Positions 8,223-43,500 of a stretch of DNA of 46,208 nucleotides are shown here, piece by piece. Under the pieces are notes generated by a model. It ran no database searches, had not been told where the DNA came from, and saw only the letters and a program-made list of their open reading frames with translations. Source of the DNA: an uncultured bacterium. GTDB taxonomy: Bacteria; DAOPZR01. The stretch's first letter is position 1. Each line of letters begins with the position of its first letter. Position numbers and translations under genes: made by a program. The stretch lies in assembly GCA_964637655.1 (NCBI GenBank), contig CAZWUZ010000002.1, positions 1 to 46,208 on the forward strand, read 5' to 3'.

Positions 8223-8241
8223 TGCGGTGCGGACAGCACTG

Positions 8242-10029
8242 ATGAGCGGACACCTGCTCCTTGCCGCCGGCAGCATGCCGGCGGATGCCGGTGCGGACGT
8301 GTGCGTGGCGCTGACCCCCGAAGCGATGGCGGCAGCTGACGCAAACGGGCAGCCGTACACGACGCCGGAAACGTATTTCACTTACGCGGAACTGGACGGT
8401 TTCATGCGCGAGCAGGACCGCAGCGAATGGTTCTGCGCGCGCCTCGACGCGATACTGGAGGCGGCACTGCCCGAGCGTGACCGCGCGGCGCTCACCCCGG
8501 CGGTCGCGCACCGCTACTACTTCAAGCAGCTGTGCGATCCGCTATTCGTCCGGACATTCGAACTGGAACGTGTGCTGCGTGCACTCAAGCCGCAGCAGGT
8601 AACCTACCTGGCGGGGGAGGAAACGCACTCAGTGCCGCACCTGTATCACGATCCGGATGCCTACGGTTCGGCTCTCGCGGCACTTGCCGGTCCGGCGGGC
8701 ATACCGATGCGGCGTGTGGCGGCGGCGCCGGCAGCAGCAGGACCGCTACCGGCAGCCCGGAGGGAAGCCGGCTGGCGGCAGCTGCGGCGCCGCGGGCGGA
8801 AGGCGGAAGCCGCGCTGCGCTGCGCTCTGCGCAATCTGCTCAACCGGCAGCGGCAGGGAACGGTCATGACGACACCTGACTGCCGGCTCGGACCGGCAGT
8901 GCAGAAACTCGGTTACGCGCTGACGTACCTGCCGGAATGCACGGCGGCGACGATACCGTCAGCGTGGCCCGCCGCCTGGCTGCCCCTGGCGGAACTGCTG
9001 GAAGCGGTGCGTCGTGACCGTGAGATTGGCGCCTGGCTGGCCCGGGAGGCTGATCTGTTTCCGCTGCTCGCGCCGGGGTTGCGTCAGTACCTGCAACGCC
9101 TGCCGGCACTGCTCGCCTACGCGCGCGCCCTGGCGGCACAACTGACGGCGGAGCGGATCCGCGCGGTGGTGCTCGATTCGTTCAGTGCGGGCGCCGGCGA
9201 TGCGCGACCACTGGCGGCACACGCGGCGCGGCAGTGCGGCATTCCCTGCGTTTCCGCCCAGCATGGCGCTGACGGTGTGCACGCGCGCCCGTTCCAGACC
9301 CACTACCTTGAACTGCCATACGCGACCACCCATCTCGTCTGGGGGGCGCAGGTACGCGACAACCTGCAGCGTGTTTATGCCGCGACGCAGATCGCGGTGT
9401 ACGGACCGACGCACGGGCGCCTGCAGCCGCAGCCGGCGGCGCCCGGCCGGGCGCCGCTCATCGTCTGCGTGCTGCGCGATTTCCGCTACGAGCATCCGCT
9501 CTACGCGTGGGACGACCCGGCCTGGAACTACTCTGCCCGCACCTACTGGCAGTTTGCCGCCGCGCTGGCGGAACAGGTATGCCGCGGACGCGGAGAGTGC
9601 CGCGTGGTCATCAAGCTGTACCCCGCGGAACGTCCTGCCGTCGTGCGTCTGTTCCGGGAACGATACGTCACCACTGACGGGCAGGTCGCGGTGGTCAGCA
9701 GCGAGGAATCGCTCGAGCGGCTGCTCACGCAGGCCGGACTGCTGGTCTGCGACTGGCTCGGCACCCCGTTTTTCCAGGCTGCACCGCTGCCGTGTTCCAT
9801 CATCGTGCGCAGCCTGACACGGCATGACCCGGCGGCGGAACGGGCGGCACGCACGCGGGCCGCGTTTCCCGGCAGCGACGCGGAACTCGCGGCACTGCTC
9901 GACACGTACTGCCGCACCGGCAGCGTGCCGCGCGAGGGGGAAGACGACCTGTTCGTGCGCGGTTATCTCAACGGCCTGTGTTGCGACCGGCAGACGCTGG
10001 CGCGGTCCGTGCGGGGAGACGGCGCATGA
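8242..10029 (+). CDS. Large unassigned glycan-biosynthesis protein (GT-B-like)
   Basis: About 595 aa; SAQHG, LVWG, VIKLYP, LLVCDWLGTP. Start is ATG 8242 or GTG 8227. Confidence 0.6.
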   Translation: MSGHLLLAAGSMPADAGADVCVALTPEAMAAADANGQPYTTPETYFTYAELDGFMREQDRSEWFCARLDAILEAALPERDRAALTPAVAHRYYFKQLCDPLFVRTFELERVLRALKPQQVTYLAGEETHSVPHLYHDPDAYGSALAALAGPAGIPMRRVAAAPAAAGPLPAARREAGWRQLRRRGRKAEAALRCALRNLLNRQRQGTVMTTPDCRLGPAVQKLGYALTYLPECTAATIPSAWPAAWLPLAELLEAVRRDREIGAWLAREADLFPLLAPGLRQYLQRLPALLAYARALAAQLTAERIRAVVLDSFSAGAGDARPLAAHAARQCGIPCVSAQHGADGVHARPFQTHYLELPYATTHLVWGAQVRDNLQRVYAATQIAVYGPTHGRLQPQPAAPGRAPLIVCVLRDFRYEHPLYAWDDPAWNYSARTYWQFAAALAEQVCRGRGECRVVIKLYPAERPAVVRLFRERYVTTDGQVAVVSSEESLERLLTQAGLLVCDWLGTPFFQAAPLPCSIIVRSLTRHDPAAERAARTRAAFPGSDAELAALLDTYCRTGSVPREGEDDLFVRGYLNGLCCDRQTLARSVRGDGA

Positions 10030-11165
10030 ACCTTCCCTGCGACTATCCGTTCACCCACTTCGAGGTGAACCACCCCAACGGTGACGTCACCTGCTGCTGC
10101 CAGCAGACGCGGGTGCTCGGCAATATCAACCGGCAGAGCGCGACGGAGATCTGGAACGGCGAGGGGTATCGCGACATGCGGCGCCGGTTCCTTGCCGGGG
10201 ATATCCTGAGTGTCTGCCCGGGCGAATGCCCGGTGCTGCACGGCTGGAAACAGAACGAGCGGCTGGACTGGTACCGCACCCGGCCGATGTCGTCGCCCGT
10301 CAGGCGCAATGCGGAACGCAACGAGCAGGAGCAGGCGGACGGTGCGCTGCAGCTGGTGTCGCAGCCGCGCTGGCTGCGCTATGCCGCCTCCTACCGGTGC
10401 AACCTGCGCTGCTACCACTGTTTTCAGGCGCAGGACCGCACCGCGCAGGCGGAGCTGCCCGACAGTTTCTTCGCGCAGGCGCGGGCCTGGTTGCCCGCCC
10501 TGCAGATGGTCTTTCTCTACGGCGGCGAGCCGCTGCTCGAACCGCGGAACCTGGCGCTGGTGGAGGAGATCGCGGCGCAGGGGGAAGTAGAAGTGCGGCT
10601 GTCGCTGATCACCAACGCGGCAGTGCTCAGCGAAGCCTGGCGCAGTGCGCTGGCGCGGGTGCGCCCGGGCATCGTCAGCATGTCGCTCGATACGTGTGAT
10701 CCGGCGCTGTTCGCGGAACTGCACCCACCGGCACGCTGGGATACGGTGCTGGCCAACGCGCGTTTTCTCGCCGGGTGGGCGCGTGCCCGCGGCGAGACGG
10801 CATGCTTCGGCTTCACCATGAACCGGAGGAACTGCGGGGAGCTGCCGGCCTTCGTCGATTTCTGCGCGGCGGAGGGGGCACTGGCGACGTTCCAGCTGGC
10901 GCATAACGTATTTCGCGACGCGCGGTTTGCCCGCACCTACGCCCTGCACACGCGCGGTGACTTCCGCCGGCTGCTGCCCCTGCTGCAGGCGGCGCAGGCG
11001 CGGGCGCGCGCGCACGGCATGCACGAGACGGAACGCAACCTGGCGGAGTTCATCACGCAGGCGGAAAAGCGCAGCCGCTGGCAGCCGCTGCTGGCGCTGC
11101 GGCGGCGCTGGCACCGCTGGCGCCGGCAGCGCGCGGCGATACGCGCAGAGGAAGGTGACCGATGA
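10026..11165 (+). CDS. Radical SAM protein with N-terminal SPASM/twitch-like domain
   Basis: ATGA start at 10026; CDYPF..GDVTCCC..CPGEC precedes CNLRCYHC and GGEPLL. Confidence 0.85.
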   Translation: MNLPCDYPFTHFEVNHPNGDVTCCCQQTRVLGNINRQSATEIWNGEGYRDMRRRFLAGDILSVCPGECPVLHGWKQNERLDWYRTRPMSSPVRRNAERNEQEQADGALQLVSQPRWLRYAASYRCNLRCYHCFQAQDRTAQAELPDSFFAQARAWLPALQMVFLYGGEPLLEPRNLALVEEIAAQGEVEVRLSLITNAAVLSEAWRSALARVRPGIVSMSLDTCDPALFAELHPPARWDTVLANARFLAGWARARGETACFGFTMNRRNCGELPAFVDFCAAEGALATFQLAHNVFRDARFARTYALHTRGDFRRLLPLLQAAQARARAHGMHETERNLAEFITQAEKRSRWQPLLALRRRWHRWRRQRAAIRAEEGDR

Positions 11166-12202
11166 CGGCAGCAAAGGACCGGGAGGCAGTGATGCAGCGG
11201 CGGTATGCCCTGCTGCCGGCGCTGCGCGACTATGACCGCCTGACGCTGACCGGCACCCCCTACCTGATGTTTTTCAACCAGCCGGAGTTCCGCTCGGCGG
11301 CATGCACCACTGACGCACTCGGCTTCCGCTTCTCCTACGCGGGAGACACGGCTGTTGATTATGCCGGTTTCCGGGCGGCGCCCGGCCGGAAACGCGTGCT
11401 GCTGGGCGGATCGACGGCGTTCGGCATCGGGGTGAGCAGCGACCGGCTGACGCTGGCCAGCCGCCTCAACGAAACGGGAGGGCTACTGTGCTGCAACGCG
11501 GGGCTGCGCGCCGGCAACAGCACCCAGGAGCTGCTCACCTGCCTGCTGCGGTTCGCCGACATCGACGGTCTCGAGCAGATTATCATTGTCAGCGGTATCA
11601 ATGATCTCGAACTGCTGCACAGCGCACCGGTATACGGGGGGGACGGCGGCGCGTTCTACTATCAGCAGTCGTGTCCGCTGGCCGGCGCGCCGCTCGAGCA
11701 CTGGCTTTGGCTCGAACGGCCGGCGTCTGCGCTGCTGCGCGAGCGGAACTGGCAGTGGCTGCGCCGGAAGGCTGCGCACTTCCTGCGCGGGCGCACGCGC
11801 TCTCCGCGGGCGGCCGGATCACCCGACGATCTGCAGCGCCTGCTGCGGCGCAACCTCGGCGTGCTGGGCTCGTTTGCGCGGGCGCGCGGCATCGATATCA
11901 CCTACGTGCTGCAGCCGTTCGCGCTCTGGCTCGACCGCGAACTGTCACCCGAGGAAGCGGAGCTTTTTGCGTTGCTTGATGCCCTGCCGGACAACCCGCT
12001 GCGCGACCATGCGGCGGCCATGCGCCGGCAGCGCGGGACGTATACCGCGATGGTGGAGCAGGCGGCCCGGGCGGGCGGGGTGCGGTTTATCGATGCCACC
12101 GCGCACTTCAACCGGCCGGGATGGCTGTTTGCCGACCGTGTGCACCTTACTGATGACGGTACCGGGCACCTGGCGGCGCTGCTCAGCGAGGCGGGCCTGT
12201 GA
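11162..12202 (+). CDS. SGNH/GDSL hydrolase-like protein (resembles the IopA-type family)
   Basis: PYLMFF..TDALGFR, GGSTAFG, NAG, SGINDL, DRVH blocks. Confidence 0.75.
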   Translation: MTAAKDREAVMQRRYALLPALRDYDRLTLTGTPYLMFFNQPEFRSAACTTDALGFRFSYAGDTAVDYAGFRAAPGRKRVLLGGSTAFGIGVSSDRLTLASRLNETGGLLCCNAGLRAGNSTQELLTCLLRFADIDGLEQIIIVSGINDLELLHSAPVYGGDGGAFYYQQSCPLAGAPLEHWLWLERPASALLRERNWQWLRRKAAHFLRGRTRSPRAAGSPDDLQRLLRRNLGVLGSFARARGIDITYVLQPFALWLDRELSPEEAELFALLDALPDNPLRDHAAAMRRQRGTYTAMVEQAARAGGVRFIDATAHFNRPGWLFADRVHLTDDGTGHLAALLSEAGL

Positions 12203-12291
12203 GGCGCCGGCTGCGCGCGTTGTGGGCATGGCTGCGCTCGTTCTGGCAGCCCCCTGACGATCCGCCGCAGGACATCTACCCGCTGTGGTGA
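12199..12291 (+). CDS. 30-aa microprotein MRRRLRALWAWLRSFWQPPDDPPQDIYPLW
   Basis: Fills the gap exactly, with GTGA overlaps to both neighbouring genes; GAGG upstream. Confidence 0.7.
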   Translation: MRRRLRALWAWLRSFWQPPDDPPQDIYPLW

Positions 12292-13148
12292 GGCGCTGGA
12301 CCAAGATCCACCTGGCGGAGGCACCGCCGCTTCCCGCGAGCACGACCCCGGCCGAGCGCTATGCCCGGCAGATGGGCGGCTACGGGGCTGATGCCGACTG
12401 CGCCACGCCGGACACGTTCCTGCGGCGGTATTTTTCCGGGCGGCTGCAGACCTATCACCGGCTGCTGATCCGCCATCTGCGTCCGGGCATGCGGGTGCTC
12501 TGCCTCGGCAGCGGGCGCTGCGTCAATGAATTGCTGCTGGCCCGGCACGGCTGCCGGGTCACCGCCTGTGACCTCGCCTACCCGCCCTGCCTGGCACCGT
12601 TGCAGGCCGCGTGCCCGGCGCTGGAATTTCGTGCGGCGGACATCACGCGGGAACTGCCGGTCGCTGCCTGCGATGCGGTTGTCGCGCTGAGCGTGTTCTA
12701 CCATTTCCCGCCGGCGGTGCTGCGGCAGCTGGCACAGCGTATCGCGGCGGCACTCCCGCCGGGCGGCGTACTGCTCTGCGATGTCGGCGGCGCGGCGGAC
12801 AGCCTGCTGACCCGCCTGCTCGATGAGGTCGTGGTGCCGCTTGACCAGTACTGGTACCGCTATGTACGCCGCGCGCCGGGCTGGCACCTGCAGCGGGAAG
12901 TGCTCGGCTACCGCTACACGGACCGGGAAGTGACCGCGATATTCACCGCGGCCGGATTGCAGCTGCAGGACGTGCAGCGGCATGACCACCGGTCGGAGCT
13001 GTGGCGCAGCTGGTTCTGCCGCCACCGGCTGCAGGGGACGTCGCGCTGGCGGCCGCTGCTCGAACGGCTCGGGGCGCAGATGCCGTACGTGCGCCTGTTC
13101 AGATTCACACGTCCGCATGCAGCTACTCTCACGGCAGGAGCATCATGA
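12288..13148 (+). CDS. Class I SAM methyltransferase
   Basis: VLCLGSGRC, VTACDL, ADIT, LPPGGVL; the coupled GTG at 12288 is preferred over 12285. Confidence 0.82.
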   Translation: MRRWTKIHLAEAPPLPASTTPAERYARQMGGYGADADCATPDTFLRRYFSGRLQTYHRLLIRHLRPGMRVLCLGSGRCVNELLLARHGCRVTACDLAYPPCLAPLQAACPALEFRAADITRELPVAACDAVVALSVFYHFPPAVLRQLAQRIAAALPPGGVLLCDVGGAADSLLTRLLDEVVVPLDQYWYRYVRRAPGWHLQREVLGYRYTDREVTAIFTAAGLQLQDVQRHDHRSELWRSWFCRHRLQGTSRWRPLLERLGAQMPYVRLFRFTRPHAATLTAGAS

Positions 13149-14731
13149 TGCGACGAATCATTCTCTGGTCGCCGGTTTCCGACGATATGCGCCACTACCT
13201 CGCTGCCGGCGGGGCGCGCGGGCTGTTCCTGCCGCCCGTCGGGCTGCTGCTGGTTGCGCAGGAATTGGAACGCGCGGGGTTTGCGGTCACCCTGGTTGAC
13301 GGCAATTTCGATCTCGACTATCTGCCGCGCCTGGTGCAGCAGGCAGCGGCGCAGCGGGAGGAACTGGTGTTCATCGGCGCCTATCTCGCGCTGCTGCAGC
13401 TCAAGGATTTCCGGCAGGCGGCGACCGCCCTGCGCGCGGCGGCGCCGGGAGTGCCGGTGGTGGTCGGCGGGCCGTTCCCGTCGGTGTTTACCGCGGCGGC
13501 AGCGGGCAGCCCGCTCATCGACATCTGCTGCACGGGCGACGGCGCCCGGGTGGCGGTTGCCCTGGCCGGGCACCTCGCAGCCGGGCGCGACTGGCGTTCC
13601 CTCCCCAACCTGGCCTATGCCGACAGCGGACAGGTGGTGACCACGCCGCGCGAGTGGTTTGACGAGCTCACCGGTGACAATGTCGTGCAGTACGAGCGGT
13701 TCTTTCCCGTCGACGAGTACGCCCCGCATTTTTCGCTCTACCTGCCGCCGCGCGACGGGTGGCAGCGCGCGCTGCCGCTGCTCACCGGGCTCGGCTGTTC
13801 CTACAAGTGCGCGTTCTGCGAAAATGCCGTGCTCGGACACAAGCACCGCTCGCTGCCGGCGGAGGCGATTGTTGAACGGATGCGGCATTATCACGAGCGA
13901 TACGGGATCGAGGCGTTCGCCCTGTTCGACGAGGATTTCTTCATCGATCGTGCGCGCCTGCTGCGCTTCATCGAGCTGCTGGAGGCGGCCCGCCTGCCCG
14001 TGCGCTGGGGGACGCAGTGCCGGGTCAATTATTTCCGCGACGGCTATATCGACCGTGAACTGCTGCGGCGGCTGGCGGCGGTCGGCTGTGTGCGGCTGTC
14101 GATGGGCGTGGAGAGCGGCTCGCCGGCGATGCTCAAACTGCTGCGCAAGCAGATCACCCCGGAACAGGTGCTGGCCGCGGCGGACACAGGCAGCGACTCT
14201 CCGATCGTCTTCACGTTCTCGCTGATGATCGGACTGCCCGGGGAAACGCGCGCCGACCTGTTTGCCACCCTCGATCTGATGCTGCAGGCGATGCAGCGCA
14301 AGCCGAACTGCCACGTCTCCGCGGTCCATCCGTACTGGGCCTTTCCCGGCACCCCGCTCGCCCGTCTGGCGGAGGAACGCGGCGGCTACTCGGCGCAAGG
14401 GCTGTCGCTGGACGAACTAGCCGACCTGTCGCTCGAGGAATACAACCGGCGTATTCTCGGAACGTCGGATGACGCGGCGCGAATGCCGGTGCAGCACTTT
14501 CTGACCGTCATGACCATGCCGGCGCAGTACCGCTATTACCGGCACCTGTTCCGGCTGCTGGCATGGTGCGTCCAGCAGCGACGGCGCCGCGGCTGGTATA
14601 CGGGACTGGCCGACCTGTATCTGCTCTACCGGGGCAAGCAGGCATGGCATTACCTGCACAAGCAGGCCGTGCCGGCCCTGAAACAGGCGGTACGGCGGCT
14701 GCTGCGCGGTGAGCGTAAGGAGGGGGTATGA
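13145..14731 (+). CDS. B12-binding domain radical SAM protein
   Basis: GGAG plus ATGA start at 13145; PPVGL, VVVGGPFPS, GCSYKCAFC, DEDF, GVESGS, IGLPGET. Confidence 0.88.
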   Translation: MMRRIILWSPVSDDMRHYLAAGGARGLFLPPVGLLLVAQELERAGFAVTLVDGNFDLDYLPRLVQQAAAQREELVFIGAYLALLQLKDFRQAATALRAAAPGVPVVVGGPFPSVFTAAAAGSPLIDICCTGDGARVAVALAGHLAAGRDWRSLPNLAYADSGQVVTTPREWFDELTGDNVVQYERFFPVDEYAPHFSLYLPPRDGWQRALPLLTGLGCSYKCAFCENAVLGHKHRSLPAEAIVERMRHYHERYGIEAFALFDEDFFIDRARLLRFIELLEAARLPVRWGTQCRVNYFRDGYIDRELLRRLAAVGCVRLSMGVESGSPAMLKLLRKQITPEQVLAAADTGSDSPIVFTFSLMIGLPGETRADLFATLDLMLQAMQRKPNCHVSAVHPYWAFPGTPLARLAEERGGYSAQGLSLDELADLSLEEYNRRILGTSDDAARMPVQHFLTVMTMPAQYRYYRHLFRLLAWCVQQRRRRGWYTGLADLYLLYRGKQAWHYLHKQAVPALKQAVRRLLRGERKEGV

Positions 14732-15714
14732 ATACCCGGGTCAACGACAACTTTCACCATCTGGGCGGCGATGACGTGCTGCAGCGCGCGGACGCGCGTT
14801 TCCGCGAGTACCGCCGGCAATGGCAGGAAAACCCCGATACCTTCACGGTGGCGCCCTACCCGCTGTTTCTTGATATCGAGGTGACCAGCGCCTGCAACCT
14901 GCGCTGCCCGTTCTGTGCCACAACCTACCGCGGCGCGAAAATCAGCCGCGGGTTCATGACCGGAGAACTCTACCGGCGCATCATCGACGAGGGAGCGGGT
15001 CACGGGCTGTACGGCGCCAAGTTCAACATCCGCGGCGAGCCGCTGCTGCACCCGGAACTGCCGGCGTTTGTCGCCTACGCGAAGCAGCGCGGCCTGCTCG
15101 ATGTCTACTTCAATACCAATGCGCAACTGCTCGACTACGATTGCGCCCTGCGGCTGATCGATGCCGGGCTCGACCGCATCTCCGTCTCCATCGAGGGGAC
15201 GACGGCGGCGGTGTACGAGCACTACCGGCCGGGCGGGACCTTCACGCGCCTGCGGGCCAACCTCGAAGGGCTGCTGGCGGCGCGGCGGGCGCGGCAGGTG
15301 ACACATCCGCGCATACGTATCCAGTCGGTGATGATTCCCGAGCTGGCCGGGGAACTCGCCGCCTATGCCGCGTTCTGGCAGCCCTATGCCGATGAGATCG
15401 CCTACCTCGATTACAAGGAAATGAAGGAACGCCGCCGGGGCCTGGCCTGCCACTGGGCCTGTCCGCAGCTCTGGCAGCGCATGGCGGTCTGGTGGGACGG
15501 CACGGTGGTTCCGTGCAATCACGATGATGATGCGCGGCTGGCACTCGGCAACGCCGGCACCCATACCCTGCGTGAACTGTGGCACGGCGAAGCGCTGCAG
15601 CGGGTGCGGCAGCAGCACCGTGACGGCCTGGCGCACACGGTGCCGGCATGCGACGGCTGCTACCTGCGCGACAGTGAAATCAGCAAGGACGGGAACCGAT
15701 GCCAGAACCTGTGA
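14728..15714 (+). CDS. Radical SAM/SPASM(twitch) protein
   Basis: EVTSACNLRCPFC, RGEPLLHP, CPQLW..DGTVVPC..CDGC. Confidence 0.9.
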   Translation: MNTRVNDNFHHLGGDDVLQRADARFREYRRQWQENPDTFTVAPYPLFLDIEVTSACNLRCPFCATTYRGAKISRGFMTGELYRRIIDEGAGHGLYGAKFNIRGEPLLHPELPAFVAYAKQRGLLDVYFNTNAQLLDYDCALRLIDAGLDRISVSIEGTTAAVYEHYRPGGTFTRLRANLEGLLAARRARQVTHPRIRIQSVMIPELAGELAAYAAFWQPYADEIAYLDYKEMKERRRGLACHWACPQLWQRMAVWWDGTVVPCNHDDDARLALGNAGTHTLRELWHGEALQRVRQQHRDGLAHTVPACDGCYLRDSEISKDGNRCQNL

Positions 15715-30028: not shown

Positions 30029-31393
30029 TCAGGCAGCTTTTCGTTTGGGCGGCGGAGCCGGTTCCACCAGCGAACGGATGGCGTCACGCTGTTTCTGCCG
30101 CAGGCGTCCGCGCGCCATCGCCAGCATGACAATCAACGCCATGCCCATCCGGCAATGCATCTTGTCGATACCACGGATGTGATGCTGCTCGAAGCCGAAG
30201 GAGACATCCAGACGGCTGTTGATCCGTTCCACGGCTGTCCGCTGCTTGTAGAGCCGCTTGAACGCATGCGTATGCCGGGCCAGTGGCGTGAACAACCGGC
30301 GATCTTTCGCCAGCGGAATACGCACTATCCGTCCGAAGCCGGTCGTTTTCCCGTTGCCACAGAGGTCACGGCCCTCGCAGGTACAGTTGTACGCCGCCGC
30401 CGGGCAGCGGTATTTCAGGCAGGCACGTTCCTTTTCGAAGCCCATAAAAGTCATCGGCCGTTCCGTGCCCGTCTCCGGACACAGGCATGACACTTCGCCG
30501 TCCTGGTTGTAAACAACGTTATCTGCCTTCGCCAGGTTTACCGAACGCGTCTTTTCTTCCCGCTCCTGCCAGCAATGGCGGTTGTGAATCACCGGCATGA
30601 TTTCATACTCGTCCCACAGCAGGACGTTATTCTCCGTCGAATCGAATCCGCGGTCCCCCACCAGGGTCTCCGCATTCGCACAAATCTGCGGGTGCCGCTC
30701 CCAGTGCTGCTGCAGCAGCACCGGGAGTTGTTCGGTATCAGTCACCTTGGCCGTGGTGATGGTGAACCCCAACGGCAGTTCGTACGTCACGTCAGCCAGC
30801 AGATGCACCTTGTAGCCGAACCACCAGATCTCTTTCTTGCGCACCTTCCCGCTGGCATCAACCGTTTCATAATGCTTCGCTCCGTATTCCGCGTCTGTGT
30901 CCCGTCGGCCATCACGCCGCCGGTTGTCAGTGCGGTGCCGTGCGGCACTCCAGATGGCTTTCCCGTCCGCACCCAGACGTCGGCCCAGCTGCGGCAGATG
31001 CCGGCGCAGGTGTTCCACCTGCTGATGGAACATGGCATCGATTGCTTTCCGTTCCTGTTTCAGTTTGCCGAGGAAGCGGCTGAAGACCCACGACGGCGGC
31101 ACGGCGGCGACACCGGACGTGGTGGAGAACCCGCACAGGCGCAGCAGATCCCCGTTGCGCAGCAGTTCGCGGCGCAGTTGTTCAACGCTGGCGTGCTGGT
31201 ACACCAGTCCGGCCAGCAGCGCATTCCACAAGGCGCGGACCGGATAGTCATTCCGCCCCCTGCCGCGGGCGTGTTCCAGTTTGGTCATCAGGGTTTCGTC
31301 TTCGATGTTGTCCAGCACCAGCTGCAGGCGGGCAAGGTCTCCCTGCTCATAGACGTCTTGCCAGGTGAAGAGACTCCGTTGTACAATAGCCAT
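30029..31393 (-). CDS. DDE transposase
   Basis: GRNDYP..LRREL..CGF, ADGK, WFGYKVHL, GDRGFDS, YKQRTAVERINSRL; GGGAGG RBS before ATG 31393. Confidence 0.92.
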   Translation of the reverse strand: MAIVQRSLFTWQDVYEQGDLARLQLVLDNIEDETLMTKLEHARGRGRNDYPVRALWNALLAGLVYQHASVEQLRRELLRNGDLLRLCGFSTTSGVAAVPPSWVFSRFLGKLKQERKAIDAMFHQQVEHLRRHLPQLGRRLGADGKAIWSAARHRTDNRRRDGRRDTDAEYGAKHYETVDASGKVRKKEIWWFGYKVHLLADVTYELPLGFTITTAKVTDTEQLPVLLQQHWERHPQICANAETLVGDRGFDSTENNVLLWDEYEIMPVIHNRHCWQEREEKTRSVNLAKADNVVYNQDGEVSCLCPETGTERPMTFMGFEKERACLKYRCPAAAYNCTCEGRDLCGNGKTTGFGRIVRIPLAKDRRLFTPLARHTHAFKRLYKQRTAVERINSRLDVSFGFEQHHIRGIDKMHCRMGMALIVMLAMARGRLRQKQRDAIRSLVEPAPPPKRKAA

Positions 31394-31462
31394 GGGTTGA
31401 TTCCCCTCCCTTTGGGAATGTCCTACGGCGATTGTACCGCAATCTCCGTCGGGAATCAACCC
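31394..31462. repeat. Perfect 12-bp inverted repeat covering the transposase initiation region
   Basis: GGGTTGATTCCC (31394-31405) and GGGAATCAACCC (31451-31462). Confidence 0.85.
31431..31459 (-). promoter_or_regulatory. Internal transposase promoter
   Basis: Minus strand TTGATT (31459-31454), 17 nt, TACAAT (31436-31431). Confidence 0.65.
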
Positions 31463-31736: not shown

Positions 31737-32642
31737 ATGGGAGTCGTGTGTCTGGTCCGGGCCGCGGGGGCGGTGTGCCTCCTGCTGTCCGTTGTGTCAG
31801 GTGTGTGGGCGGCGGAAGCGCCGCCCGCGGACGCGTTTGCGCTGCTGGCGCAGCAGTTGCAGCAGCAGGCGGCGACCGCGGGGTGCACGGTGGCGTACGT
31901 CGTGCATGACCTGCGGCGCGGCGACGCGGTGCATGCCGGCAGGAACATCATCCTGCCGGCGGCGTCGCTGATCAAGGTGCCGGTGCTGGTGGAGGCCTTC
32001 GCACAGATCGATGCGGGACTGCTCCGGCCGGATGACACCTTCGTGCTGCGCGAGAGCGACAAGACGGGGGGCTCGGGGATCCTGCGCTACTGCGCGGCGG
32101 GGACGGTCTGGACGGCGCGCGACCTTTTGCGCCTGATGATTGTCAAAAGCGACAACACGGCGACCGACATGCTGCTCGCCCGCCTGGGGATGGCGCGGAT
32201 CAACGCGCGCATGCGCCGGCTCGGGCTGACGGCCACGCGGGTGCGGCGGAAGATCCTCGACTACGCGGCGCTGCGACGCGGCATCGAGAACACGACGACG
32301 GCCTACGAAATGGCGCGGCTGCTGCAGCTGATTCACACCGGGCGGGCGGCGTCGCCCGCGTCGTGCCGCGCGATGCTCGATATCCTGCTCGCGCAGGAGT
32401 ATAACGACCGCATCCCGCGCCTGCTGCCGGCCGGCGTGGCGGTGGCGCACAAGACGGGCACGATGCACCGGCTGACCCACGACGCCGGCATCGTCTACAC
32501 CCCTGATGGCGGCGCGTTCAGCATCACGGTGCTGGTGCAGGGGCTGGAAGAAACCGGCGGGGAAACGCTGATCGCGCAGCTGGCGCGGCGGGCATACGAC
32601 TACTTCGCGGCGGCGCCGGCCACGGCGACTGCGGTACGGTAG
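31737..32642 (+). CDS. Secreted class A beta-lactamase-related serine hydrolase (PBP-like)
   Basis: Signal peptide; ASLIK, SDN, HKTG motifs. Confidence 0.88.
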   Translation: MGVVCLVRAAGAVCLLLSVVSGVWAAEAPPADAFALLAQQLQQQAATAGCTVAYVVHDLRRGDAVHAGRNIILPAASLIKVPVLVEAFAQIDAGLLRPDDTFVLRESDKTGGSGILRYCAAGTVWTARDLLRLMIVKSDNTATDMLLARLGMARINARMRRLGLTATRVRRKILDYAALRRGIENTTTAYEMARLLQLIHTGRAASPASCRAMLDILLAQEYNDRIPRLLPAGVAVAHKTGTMHRLTHDAGIVYTPDGGAFSITVLVQGLEETGGETLIAQLARRAYDYFAAAPATATAVR

Positions 32643-40505: not shown

Positions 40506-40555
40506 AGTTGCATGTCCAATGAACAGGTTTTGACCTGACGTGTGGCCTGCCATTG

Positions 40556-43500
40556 ATGCGTCCTGAAACGGCGGGCACTGCGCGCCCGTTCGGGCTGTGG
40601 TGTACGCTGTTCTTCGTGCTCGTACTCTGCTGGGGGATTCCGGTCCCGGCCGCGGCGCTCACCTGGAGTACCGGCACGCCGCTGCCGTTCACGCTGGTCT
40701 CTGCCGCCTCGGTCAAACTGGGTGACACGCTCTACGTGGTGGCCGGTACTGCCAATGGCATTGAAACCGGGGCGGTCTGGGGCTACAGTCCCGCGCGCGG
40801 CTGGGTGTCCGGCGGCGCCTTGCCGTACACATGCAAACGTGTCGCTGCTGCCGCCTACGGCAGCGAGACCATATTCGTCGCCGGCGGCACCATCAACATC
40901 ACTGACACGGCGGCGTTCACCGCCTTCAACGTGCGCACGGGCGCGAGTGTCTCCTATACGCCGCTGCCGGCGACGCTGAGCCGCGGCGTGGCGGTGGTAT
41001 TCGGCGACACGCTCTATATCATTGGCGGCAGGTTCAATGCCAGCAGCGGCTACGATACGGTTTATTCCTACTACCTGCCGCAGGGCCCGACGGGCATGTG
41101 GCGGGAGAATGCCATTGCGCACCTCATTGACGGGCGCGAGCAGCATGTCGCGTTTGTTGCCAACAACGGCATCTACCTCGCCGGCGGCTTTCGCAGCGTC
41201 GGGGCTGCGACCGTTGGCAGTATGTACTTCTACAATTTCGGCGGCGACACGTGGCTGACCCGCCCGGCCATGCCGCAGCCGCGCGAACAGGCGGGCTGGG
41301 CGCAGACCGCCGACACGGTCTATGTCATCGCCGGCACGTCGGACGGAATTGATTCGGTCCCCACGGTCTATGCCTTCCGCCTTGCGGCCGAGGCATGGAC
41401 CACCGAAACCTCCCTGCCGGCGGCGCGCAAACTGCTTGTTGGCGGCGCGCTGGGCGACACCATCTACGCCGTCGGCGGCATGAACAGCGTTTCGCTCGCT
41501 TCGGTCGACGCTGCCGGTGTCCCGGCGCCTGCGGCCGGCTTCAGCGACGGCGGCAGCGTGACGGTCTTTGTCAGCAACCTTGGCGACAGCAGCAACCCGG
41601 TGAGCGGCGATACCACATCCGCGTTCGGCGGCATCAGCGAGGCGATGGCCGCGCTCGACCCGGCGAACGGGGTCGATACGATCATTGTCTATAGCTACTA
41701 CGATCCCGCGTCACCGGGGGATGATTCATATACGCTGACCGTTCCCGTCTATTGCGACACTGGCGTTACCCTGACTTCGTATTTCGCGCTGTACGGTCAG
41801 GACACCGGTGGTGGCGCCGATACGTGGGCGAAGATAAGTCACAACAGCGATACGACGGTGATCCGGGCCACGCCGGGCGAGAATATCACCATCCGCGGGT
41901 TCATTCTCGACGGCGGCATCGGCAAGTATACCGGCACGAACCATTATGCGCTGAGCGTTTCGCGCGGCTGCCTGATCGAACAGGTGGAGCTGTACGGTTT
42001 CTTCCGCGCCTTCTCCATCGGGGGCGGCAACACCGTCAGCCAGGTCTATTCGCACGATAATGAGGACAACGCGGTCTGGACGAATTCCGGCGCCGGGAGC
42101 ACCTCCTTCAGCAATTGCAGCTTCAGTAATGAGGGGAAGAAGGCGTTCTATTTTGTCGCCGGGGCGAGCGGTCACACGGTAAGCAATACGGTTATGGAAA
42201 ATTGCGAGGCGGGGGTCTGGGCGGTCGCCACCGCGGATAACAATTCATTCATCGGCAATTCGATTGCCGGCAGCAGCGACATCGGTATGTACATCGAAGG
42301 TGACAATAGCAGGGTCTCATCCAACCGGATCGCGGGCAATGGCGCCGGCGGTTTCGAGTTTGCCGGAACGACCACGGGCTATTTGCAGCAGAATGATATT
42401 GTCAACAATGACAGCTACGCCATTTCGCTGACCGGGACACTGAGCGGCATCGCGATCAACCGTAATAATATCGCGCCGTCAACCGCCCTGCCCGACAGCG
42501 GCATATACGCTGACGCCACTGGCAGCGATACCTTCGACCTGCTGCGCAACTACTGGCATACGACGAACGAGGATTCTATAGCCGGCTGGCTGCACGGCAG
42601 CAGCGCCGACTCCATCGCGTGGTACCCGTATCGGCTCGGCAGGGTCGACACCGCGGCGGGCGCCGACACCGTGGCGCCCGCCAGTCCGTCCGGCCTGGCG
42701 GCGGACACGTCGACGGGCGGTCAGCTTACCCTGACCTGGACCGGGGTGACGTTGAACGAGGATGGTTCGGCCTGCGCCGACCTCGCCGCCTACAACGTCT
42801 ACCGCTGTACCGCGGCCCTGGCGCCGGTGGCGGACTGGAAGGCGGTGTACCTTGGCAGTTCGCCGGATACCATGTACGTCGACACGATGGTGATGGCAGG
42901 CGTGACCTACTGCTACCGGGTAACCGCCTACGACAACCACAGCCCGTGGGAAAACGAGAGCTTCTTCAGCGACACGGTCACTGTGACCGCGGCCGCAATT
43001 GACACCTTCGGTCCGAACCAGTGGTACGTCAGCACCGCGGGTGATACCGCCAACGACGGACTGACGTGGGGGACGGCGAAACGCTACCTCGGCAACCTCC
43101 TGCGCGGGTCATGCAATCAGGCCGGCCCGATTCTCCTGACACAGGGTGACACCGTCAACCTCGGGGCGGGCACCTGGAGCGAGACAGTGAGCATCGGCAC
43201 CCACTACGTTGCGCTGGTCGGCCAGGACTCGGCAGCGACGAGTATCGATCTGCTGGACAGCAGTGCGCCGGGCAAGCCGGCCGCGATTACCGCGACCGGC
43301 GTCATCGGTGCCACCATCGCCAATCTGCAGGTGGGTAATGCCGCGTATGGCATTCTGCTCAATAACGCTGACAATGCAATGGTCAGCGCGGTCACGGTCG
43401 GAAACTGCCTGTACAACGGTGTGCGTATCTATATCGGGGCGGACAGTGCCGTACTCAGCAACTGTCACCTCGACGGCGCGGGTGAAGATGCGCTGCTGAT

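Follow-up and report, generated by a model that had tools for sequence, protein, structure and literature searches.

Introduction

Three literatures, those on the essential small open reading frame (ORF) gvgB, the crocagin peptidase CgnD, and the tyrosine shuttle formed by MBOAT and SGNH proteins, meet in one gene pair that we describe here from an uncultured bacterium (contig CAZWUZ010000002.1). The pair consists of an SGNH hydrolase gene and a microprotein gene that overlaps its end (12199..12291), and it lies in a window of 46,208 nucleotides, by which we mean the whole stretch of DNA that was analysed.

The gvg genes of Pseudomonas fluorescens WH6 include gvgA, annotated as an "esterase/lipase", gvgB, a 27-residue ORF that has 8 lysines and lacks a membrane segment, gvgC, which encodes a haem-oxygenase-like protein, and gvgF, which encodes a carbamoyltransferase (bioRxiv 10.1101/080572). 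Deletion of either gvgA or gvgB abolishes 4-formylaminooxyvinylglycine (FVG), and both deletions are complemented in trans (bioRxiv 10.1101/080572). The annotation of gvgB has been dropped by RefSeq (bioRxiv 10.1101/080572; PMC8064604). Clusters of the gvg-like kind, found in Proteobacteria and Actinobacteria and counting a piece of the aldgamycin cluster among them, are described as having gvgA, gvgB, gvgC, and gvgF as their core (PMC8064604). A review traces the backbone and alpha-nitrogen of FVG to free L-homoserine (PMC13232609), and the gvg literature searched, in the sections available, offers no mechanism for GvgB.

In the crocagin pathway, CgnD acts in vitro on the 21-residue CgnA and slowly frees its modified C-terminal core, Ile-Tyr-Trp, with no measurable binding of CgnA (PMC10070186). 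The leader of CgnA is rich in positive charges, and CgnD carries a Ser79/Asp325/His328 triad and forms a dimer in which two channels lead to the active sites (PMC10070186). CgnA and its relatives end in N-x-Y-W or similar (PMC10070186 supplementary sheet), and the crocagin-type precursors of network 1 all have x-Tyr-Trp ends with the exception of one truncated entry (PMC10070186 supplement). In the DltX/PatA shuttle, a Tyr within a C-terminal FxYxxF hexapeptide is acylated and hands its group to the Ser of an SGNH partner, which is DltD in the case of DltX, a membrane microprotein, and PatB in the case of PatA (PMC12148441). Within the literature searched, no paper joins crocagin or CgnD with gvg, or DltX with either, and the strings IYPMF, SIYPMF, and IYPLW occur in none; in the portions available, the papers on mangotoxin, Klebsiella O-antigen, and tRNA deacylases mention neither CgnD nor GvgA. 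The system is known in pieces, gvgB by genetics and CgnA/CgnD by biochemistry.

A small gene conserved beside an SGNH hydrolase

The ORF at 12199..12291 is very probably a real gene and a functional partner of the SGNH enzyme: we observe that it is conserved, that it is selected as a protein, and that it is always paired with this SGNH family. To define the related loci, an alignment of nine relatives of the SGNH enzyme was used to scan one genome per species, which gave 434 matching stretches, 258 of them encoding a relative, and the best 80 of these 258 were kept. When the loci are translated in six frames, 79 of the 80 contain exactly one ORF ending in Y-[P/A]-[L/M]-[F/W]-stop, while the same small ORF in the 80th (L003) ends in Tyr-Pro-His-Phe. 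The pattern Y-P-[L/M/H]-[F/W]-stop has 80 sites in the 80 loci, one in each, versus 16 in 2000 block-shuffled loci (0.008 per locus), and its only site in the window is the microprotein ORF. An initial annotation of this DNA, made from the sequence alone, had proposed the gene and suggested looking for small ORFs with such a tail beside homologues of the SGNH gene; they are present at all 80 loci, and the proposed functional pairing of microprotein and SGNH enzyme is well supported. The exact tail pattern it gave, [DN]IYP[LM][FW], was too narrow and is matched in only two of the 80 loci (L001 and L006), where the tail is identical to that of the window (Asp-Ile-Tyr-Pro-Leu-Trp) and occupies the same position relative to the SGNH gene.

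The small ORF lies directly 3' of the SGNH gene on the same strand in 73/80 loci, with a gap of -4 to 105 bases, and in 16 loci the two genes overlap by 4 bases as they do in the window. Other arrangements occur in L013, in which the small ORF is upstream of the SGNH gene, L059, L069, and L071, in which one gene intervenes (an aminotransferase gene in L071, where this was scanned), L072, in which the two genes are divergent, and L068, in which both the SGNH gene and the small ORF (L068:6996-7079) are out of frame in the assembly. L080 falls outside the 73 only as its start was assigned too early. In L068, either the entire pair has decayed or the frames were lost through sequencing errors in homopolymers. 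The related small ORFs nearly all begin with ATG and are preceded by an AGGAG/GGAG-like site.

Selection acts on the end of the peptide. Across 569 same-length pairs, the ratio of nonsynonymous to synonymous differences (pN/pS) is 0.079 for the last 8 codons (at pS 0.52) versus 0.84 for the head, and thus, the tail is kept as protein while the head drifts. Among 81 peptides, Tyr at position -4 and Pro at position -3 are invariant. The residues after them are, at -2, M in 75, L in 5, and H in 1 and, at -1, F in 76 and W in 5; those before them are, at -5, I in 73, N in 5, and three others and, at -6, S in 65, D in 12, and T in 4.

The length of the ORF is by itself unremarkable. The window holds 447 ORFs of at least 30 residues, and a 29-codon stretch stays open with P ~0.5 at this composition; it is comparative conservation, rather than length, that decides the case for a gene. 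Both numbers would fit an untranslated spacer of 93 bases left open by chance in a GC-rich genome, as would the result of a phmmer search of the 30-residue sequence against 1.84 billion representative proteins, which returned no match. Against such a spacer stand the tail shared with L001 and L006, the single tail ORF at each of the 80 loci, and the G+C content by codon position, which follows the coding-frame pattern: 0.67/0.57/0.90 in the microprotein gene compared with 0.71/0.51/0.83 and 0.73/0.53/0.83 in the flanking genes, the 0.90 peak shifting to codon position 1 or 2 when the same 90 bases are read in the other two frames. A chance ORF is highly improbable, and this explanation is already contradicted by the comparative data. 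The stretch contains no Rfam family and no promoter-like or terminator-like site, and its reading as a known RNA, terminator, or promoter was rejected for want of a match to any of these. Its reading as a C-terminal extension of the SGNH protein was likewise rejected, as the SGNH homologues end where the window SGNH ends, and the small ORF is therefore not a lost C-terminal piece.

The ORF begins with GTG and has 30 codons before its TGA stop. Its translation agrees with that given in the initial annotation, and so do the GTGA overlaps at both ends, where the microprotein GTG overlaps the TGA of the SGNH gene and its TGA overlaps an in-frame GTG of the methyltransferase gene (12288). As also reported there, the 9-mer GTGAGGCGC is read at both junctions (12199-12207 and 12288-12296), and the microprotein and methyltransferase ORFs consequently both begin with Met-Arg-Arg. 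These are the only 2 copies of the 9-mer in the whole window; at least 2 copies are found in 43 of 100 shuffles of the window, and the copy number in itself is not unusual. The 5-base match beyond the coupling GTGA is, by a rough estimate, a ~1-in-200 event, and the repeat could be due to chance, a shared initiation context, or the trace of a small-gene insertion.

The head of the microprotein is likely a leader or a peripheral membrane anchor. Transmembrane-like heads occur in 5 of the 81 peptides (L001, L002, L003, L006, and L045), while those of the rest are basic-hydrophobic. The membrane association suggested for the microprotein is thus plausible from its relatives, although the window head is not itself predicted to be transmembrane. 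The proposed amphipathic helix is more equivocal: the best 11-residue hydrophobic moment of the window head, 0.70, is also attained by 22% of the sequences obtained by shuffling its residues. In 29 of the 81 peptides, the moment of the head is reached by at most 5% of shuffles, and the window peptide is not among them. The net charge of the window peptide is +2 versus a family median of +7, and the Pro-Pro-x-Asp run that precedes its tail is shared with the peptides of L001 and L026.

By both the length and position of its ORF beside an SGNH gene and its [D/S/T]-x-Tyr-Pro-[L/M/H]-[F/W] tail, the microprotein is a member of an uncurated family of 26-46-residue peptides, of which GvgB is the known member. 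The Pseudomonas peptides of this family have 27 residues with 8 lysines and therefore match the published description of GvgB. A profile built from 62 peptides finds 258 proteins at E <=0.01 among 5.8 billion; the named ones among these are all "hypothetical" or "uncharacterized", none has a Pfam domain, and the 120 matches listed all end in Ser-Ile-Tyr-Pro-Met-Phe. In Pfam (at E up to 10), the window peptide has one noise match, NCBIfam behaves likewise, and both give only noise for 10 related peptides, while the matches in the ESM Atlas are no more than weak look-alikes at 0.80, a score also attained by shuffled proteins in one case out of three. Pfam and NCBIfam have no model of the family, and the gene is overlooked by annotation pipelines. 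A search for fused forms gave three matches at E <=1, two of which resemble over-called ORFs. The partial metagenomic sequence P0133 (210 residues) reads from an SGNH C-terminus in frame into a GvgB-like peptide, either as a natural fusion or through a lost stop codon. Within the family, the window copy is a divergent variant: its tail is of the Asp type, its head is rich in Trp, it lies inside a glycan operon, and it has neither a carbamoyltransferase nor an oxidase as a partner.

The partner enzyme is a homologue of the crocagin peptidase

The SGNH enzyme of the window is a clear homologue of CgnD, which is a proven peptide-cleaving hydrolase and one member of this SGNH family. With phmmer, the window enzyme matches CgnD in the PDB (8a2n) at E 1.5e-40, and for the profile of the SGNH family, CgnD is the single solved structure matched (E 5e-99). 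An AlphaFold (AF2) model of the window enzyme, with a predicted local distance difference test score (pLDDT) of 83 and a predicted template modelling score (pTM) of 0.84, has 8a2n as its best Foldseek match (template modelling scores, TM, of 0.72/0.82), followed by ordinary SGNH esterases at TM <=0.41. The catalytic residues Ser84, Asp325, and His328, together with Asn112 and Asn147, are invariant in 80/80 sequences. With its likeness to CgnD in sequence and fold and its Ser-Asp-His triad, the enzyme is of the CgnD/GvgA type. A hydrophobic segment at the N-terminus is absent from all 80 SGNH proteins, which are therefore predicted to be cytoplasmic. In the protein collection, the window enzyme has 10 relatives besides itself, which are at most 37% identical to it, the nearest being metagenome-derived. 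The second GDSL gene of the window (20797..21999) was considered as a paralogue and rejected; it has no such peptide.

In a maximum-likelihood tree of the 80 SGNH sequences, one branch with a support of 99/100 splits the enzymes by the tail type of their peptides: 68 are partners of [S/T]-Ile-Tyr-Pro-Met-Phe peptides and 12, including that of the window, of Asp-x-Tyr-Pro-x-[F/W] peptides, a split that was matched by none of 500 label shuffles. The window enzyme sits on a long branch (3.1), which makes its exact place in the tree unsure. Three SGNH columns separate the tail groups, among them 117, a few residues past the invariant Asn112, and 329, which adjoins the catalytic His328. We regard this co-variation with position -6 of the tail as a lead only, as it could arise from relatedness alone.

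The comparison with crocagin extends to the peptide. CgnA resembles the window peptide in its short length, its positively charged leader, and its end, a polar residue followed by x-Tyr and a terminal Trp, and the crocagin pathway includes a carbamoyltransferase and a methyltransferase, as do many of the related loci. In contrast, CgnA of Chondromyces crocatus ends in Asn-Ile-Tyr-Trp without the invariant Pro-x, the window peptide lacks the x-Tyr-Trp core, and gene order and pathway differ. Pfam scans of the window find neither the CgnB/CgnE-type peptide-binding proteins nor the CgnC-type dioxygenase of a crocagin-type cluster. For four window ORFs of unknown family, no PDB chain, CgnB and CgnE included, matches at E <=0.1 apart from one unrelated match; as these queries used single sequences only, distant relatives could be missed. 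GvgC has no PDB relative either as a single sequence or as a 30-sequence profile, and no link to CgnB/E emerges from these searches. The methyltransferase that follows the peptide in the window and in L048 was tried as a CgnL-like enzyme and rejected, as phmmer gave no match.

The likeness to the gvg system is of a similar kind. There, too, a small ORF directly follows the SGNH gene, and GvgB has a Tyr-Pro-x-aromatic tail and a basic head without a transmembrane segment. GvgA and the window SGNH are homologous at ~32% identity. The differences are that GvgB ends in Ser-Ile-Tyr-Pro-Met-Phe rather than Asp-Ile-Tyr-Pro-Leu-Trp, that the window SGNH lies outside the 68-member GvgB-type clade, and that the setting is a nonulosonic-acid glycan operon in which, from Pfam scans of 39 window ORFs, neither a gvgC-like oxidase nor a gvgF-like carbamoyltransferase of a gvg-like cluster is found.

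Possible roles of the microprotein

In our best reading, the microprotein is a dedicated peptide substrate or partner of the adjacent hydrolase, which handles its tail. The basic/hydrophobic head would act as a leader or membrane tether, while the invariant tail (Asp-Ile-Tyr-Pro-Leu-Trp-COOH) would enter the active-site channel of the hydrolase and be cut off, possibly after modification. By analogy with the cut that CgnD makes between Asn and Ile of Asn-Ile-Tyr-Trp in CgnA, the window peptide would be cut between Asp25 and Ile26, and the freed or processed tail would serve the surrounding glycan/nonulosonic-acid pathway. We infer the cleavage of this peptide, its site, any modification of the tail by neighboring enzymes, and the role of the product, and as stated, the cleavage mechanism is in our judgment just short of an even call. 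Its basis is that a short basic peptide with an x-Tyr...aromatic end always accompanies this SGNH family, which makes the pairing general; together with the action of CgnD on CgnA, this suggests that the tail is the part that the window enzyme would handle. Cleavage before Ile26 draws further support from the Acidimicrobiia loci, which match crocagin functions, and from L001, in which a radical SAM/SPASM gene follows that of the peptide. The initial annotation had considered the microprotein as a peptide substrate of the flanking methyltransferase and radical SAM enzymes; the idea of a substrate gains support in a different form, with the SGNH enzyme as the one that would act on it, by its homology to the peptide-cutting CgnD. 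Applied to the gvg system, the same reading yields a hypothesis for a question open since 2016, namely that GvgA acts on the Tyr-Pro tail of GvgB. The pair would also be a marker of peptide-dependent steps in clusters that would otherwise pass for sugar or small-molecule pathways only, the glycan operon of the window being one.

Several points weigh against this reading. The turnover of CgnD is very slow and CgnA binding was not detected (PMC10070186), the Tyr-Pro-Leu-Trp end of the window peptide differs from the Tyr-Trp of CgnA, and the window has, by Pfam and by the PDB queries of four ORFs, no CgnB/CgnE-like or CgnC-like genes. For the window copy, both translation and cleavage are predicted from comparison rather than from direct evidence. 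The atoms of FVG are reported to come from free L-homoserine and not from GvgB (review, PMC13232609), and GvgB is therefore needed yet not the source of the product. The same tail is found in unrelated clusters (amino-acid antimetabolite, macrolide, and glycan), which is unexpected for the core of a classical RiPP, a peptide made by the ribosome and modified after translation. Moreover, the head is variable, whereas the leader is usually the conserved part in classical RiPPs, and heads are interchangeable with transmembrane helices, which suggests anchoring over leader recognition.

The main rival, ahead of a docking subunit and then of a chance ORF, is that Tyr27 is a shuttle or carrier that bears an acyl, aminoacyl, carbamoyl, or glycosyl ester, as a cytoplasmic counterpart of DltX/PatA. 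The SGNH Ser would load, unload, or pass on the group, the head would sit at the inner membrane face, and the peptide, rather than being consumed, would serve repeatedly. The homoserine origin of FVG, the unrelated clusters, and the variable and transmembrane heads all fit such a re-usable, membrane-tethered carrier, as does the need for gvgB in making FVG, and the two-gene pair travels between unrelated pathways. Like DltX, the microprotein is small, has an SGNH partner, and ends in a hexapeptide with Tyr fourth from the end and an aromatic last residue, features that hold for 81/81 peptides, each with an SGNH partner, while heads are transmembrane in 5/81 and basic-hydrophobic in the rest; a carbamoyltransferase is encoded nearby in 53/80 loci. 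This resemblance in tail and partner favors the initial proposal of an acyl-carrying Tyr, which is a live rival, but other parts of the comparison with DltX/PatA count against it. The first residue of the motif is Asp, Ser, or Thr in 81/81 peptides and never Phe, so that FxYxxF is not found, and neither an MBOAT nor another known loader is encoded among the 39 window ORFs scanned or among 66 ORFs from 8 related loci. The window peptide lacks a transmembrane helix. Neither a signal peptide nor a membrane segment is present in the SGNH enzyme, which is predicted to be cytoplasmic, whereas the sites of action of the DltX motif and PatB are extracytoplasmic (PMC12148441). The window enzyme also has no sequence relation or close fold relation to DltD or PatB; the solved structure closest to it is that of the peptidase CgnD, and the matches listed include no chain of DltD or PatB. 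Weak evidence is that no large protein with this tail was found, the three longer matches looking like over-called ORFs or a read-through. Overall, we consider the tyrosine shuttle unlikely. More doubtful still is a broader form, in which a GvgB/CgnA-like peptide and a CgnD/GvgA-type SGNH make up a widespread, portable two-gene module, the peptide being tethered to the membrane and its Tyr being a cytoplasmic covalent handle on or through which intermediates are built or passed and from which the SGNH releases them. If true, the intermediates on the Tyr handle would be homoserine-derived in FVG biosynthesis and nonulosonic-acid side chains in the window, and an MBOAT-free cytoplasmic shuttle would explain an essential gvgB that gives FVG no atom. 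Lower again in our estimation, and rather improbable, is a subunit that is not a substrate at all: the tail would bind the SGNH enzyme, either to activate it or just to hold it at the membrane or at a transporter, with nothing cut or carried. This would account for the universal pairing and frequent translational coupling and for the anchor-like heads, and it would be in line with the ABC transporter genes that adjoin the SGNH gene in L001 and L026 and the LysE exporters in gvg loci. The in-frame joining of the two partners in P0133 points the same way, but this is one partial record in which a stop codon may have been lost. A ~100-fold drop in transcripts of the whole gvg operon on gvgA knock-out hints at a regulatory side. 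On the other hand, the selected part is a free C-terminal hexapeptide with an invariant Tyr-Pro, which resembles an active-site ligand more than a docking helix, and the homologue CgnD acts catalytically on its peptide (PMC10070186). We therefore retain the processing of the tail by the SGNH enzyme as the best reading.

Genomic context of the pair

The window has a G+C content of 57-72%, and the pair lies within a long operon of the nonulosonic-acid type on the forward strand (158 to ~26240). Its genes encode NeuB, three CMP-sugar-type cytidylyltransferases, aminotransferases, methyltransferases, a glycosyltransferase, epimerases, a deacetylase, two GDSL/SGNH proteins, and five radical SAM enzymes (two B12-binding and three with SPASM/twitch domains). 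Pfam scans of the same 39 ORFs find no carbamoyltransferase, haem-oxygenase-like oxidase, MBOAT, or 2-oxoglutarate dioxygenase. The principal features are collected in Table 1.

Table 1. Positions and supporting evidence for the microprotein gene, its parts, its neighbors in the window, and a second type of small ORF in related loci.
Feature	Position	Strand	Evidence or remarks
Microprotein gene	12199..12291	+	30 codons + stop; codon-position G+C; homologous small ORF in 80/80 related loci
Shine-Dalgarno-like GAGG	12188..12191	+	7 bases 5' of microprotein GTG; read in the sequence
Microprotein head, residues 1-16	12199..12246	+	Arg- and Trp/Leu-rich; aligns with basic-hydrophobic heads of relatives
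Microprotein linker, residues 17-25 (QPPDDPPQD)	12247..12273	+	Pro/Asp-rich
Microprotein C-terminal tail, Ile26-Tyr27-Pro28-Leu29-Trp30	12274..12288	+	Conserved functional end
CgnD/GvgA-type SGNH hydrolase, 346 residues	11162..12202	+	Pfam Lipase_GDSL_2 E 1.3e-07; predicted cytoplasmic
Class I SAM methyltransferase	12288..13148	+	Start GTG 12288 or 12285; Pfam Methyltransf_23/25/11/12
Radical SAM/SPASM enzyme	14728..15714	+	57% identical to L001:7187-8161
Second small ORF, examples	L015:11411-11554, L030:8375-8515, L005:1121-1264		Without Pfam family

The methyltransferase is predicted to be translationally coupled to the microprotein. The first in-frame start of its 287-residue ORF is the GTG at 12285, and after that at 12288, the next is at 12372; an early start is favored by a third-position G+C of 0.89 over 12288..12370. 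The radical SAM/SPASM enzyme of Table 1 may act in the same pathway as the peptide, a link suggested by L001 (Omnitrophota), in which its homologue (L001:7187-8161) directly follows the microprotein gene. Between 1750 and 13032, L001 carries the sugar genes of the window (NeuB, cytidylyltransferases, SGNH, peptide, radical SAM/SPASM, aminotransferase, and two B12 radical SAM enzymes), with pathway enzymes that are 29-64% identical to those of the window (57% for the radical SAM/SPASM enzyme, 64% for a cytidylyltransferase, and 32% for the SGNH enzyme). For the radical SAM, aminotransferase, and transferase genes, no NCBIfam match reaches its cut-off, and these matches do not tell a peptide from a sugar substrate. 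The radical SAM gene directly upstream of the SGNH gene (9978..11165, +) has an N-terminal SPASM/twitch domain (NCBIfam N_Twi_rSAM at E 2e-29, below its cut-off), and as its listed start overlaps a 600-residue ORF (8227..10029), its true start is probably later.

Clustering of the ORFs of all loci reveals which neighbors are conserved elsewhere. In the large clade, two neighbors are conserved, a 735-residue protein with a C-terminal haem-oxygenase-like domain that directly follows the peptide (40/80 loci) and a carbamoyltransferase (53/80 loci), which is the arrangement published for gvg. The Acidimicrobiia loci L005, L017, L024, L040, and L048 combine a carbamoyltransferase, a small membrane ORF, an SGNH enzyme, an Asp-Asn-Tyr-Pro-Met-Phe peptide, and a methyltransferase. 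The carbamoyltransferase gene adjoins that of the SGNH enzyme in L040 and L048, the methyltransferase gene follows the peptide in L048 and L005, and the gene functions of L040, L048, and L005 are those of crocagin CgnI, CgnD, CgnA, and CgnL. In L040, the compact set is flanked by housekeeping-type genes, and this Acidimicrobiia set may be the simplest system in which to study the pair.

The initial annotation had likened the microprotein to SxtK-like small proteins, a link that is not supported: it has no such Pfam match, and the small membrane ORFs that follow carbamoyltransferases are a different family. These ORFs, of the SxtJ/SxtK and GvgG type, are like the microprotein in being small, unannotated, and found in the same kind of clusters, and GvgG is compared with Sxt ORFs in the gvg paper (bioRxiv 10.1101/080572). 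Unlike the microprotein, they come after a carbamoyltransferase and carry a transmembrane helix at the N-terminus but no Tyr-Pro tail. In many of 43 loci, we observe a second small ORF 3' of the carbamoyltransferase with an N-terminal transmembrane helix and an ...SYW... or ...AWD... motif, which is probably GvgG.

Other features of the window lie farther from the pair. It contains four CTP_transf_3 cytidylyltransferase paralogues on the forward strand (at 158, 4691, 21996, and 38431), one of which (21996..22751) shares 64% identity with L001:8166-8915. Between the glycan operon and a cell-wall block that includes a class A penicillin-binding protein and a PASTA protein, a stretch of lower G+C (0.61) contains a DDE transposase gene adjoining an ORF of the class A beta-lactamase family (30029-31459, reverse strand, and 31737-32642, forward strand). 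Finally, an ORF of more than 1885 residues with Kelch and many right-handed beta-helix/NosD repeats (40553-46207, forward strand; G+C 0.57) runs off the end of the window.

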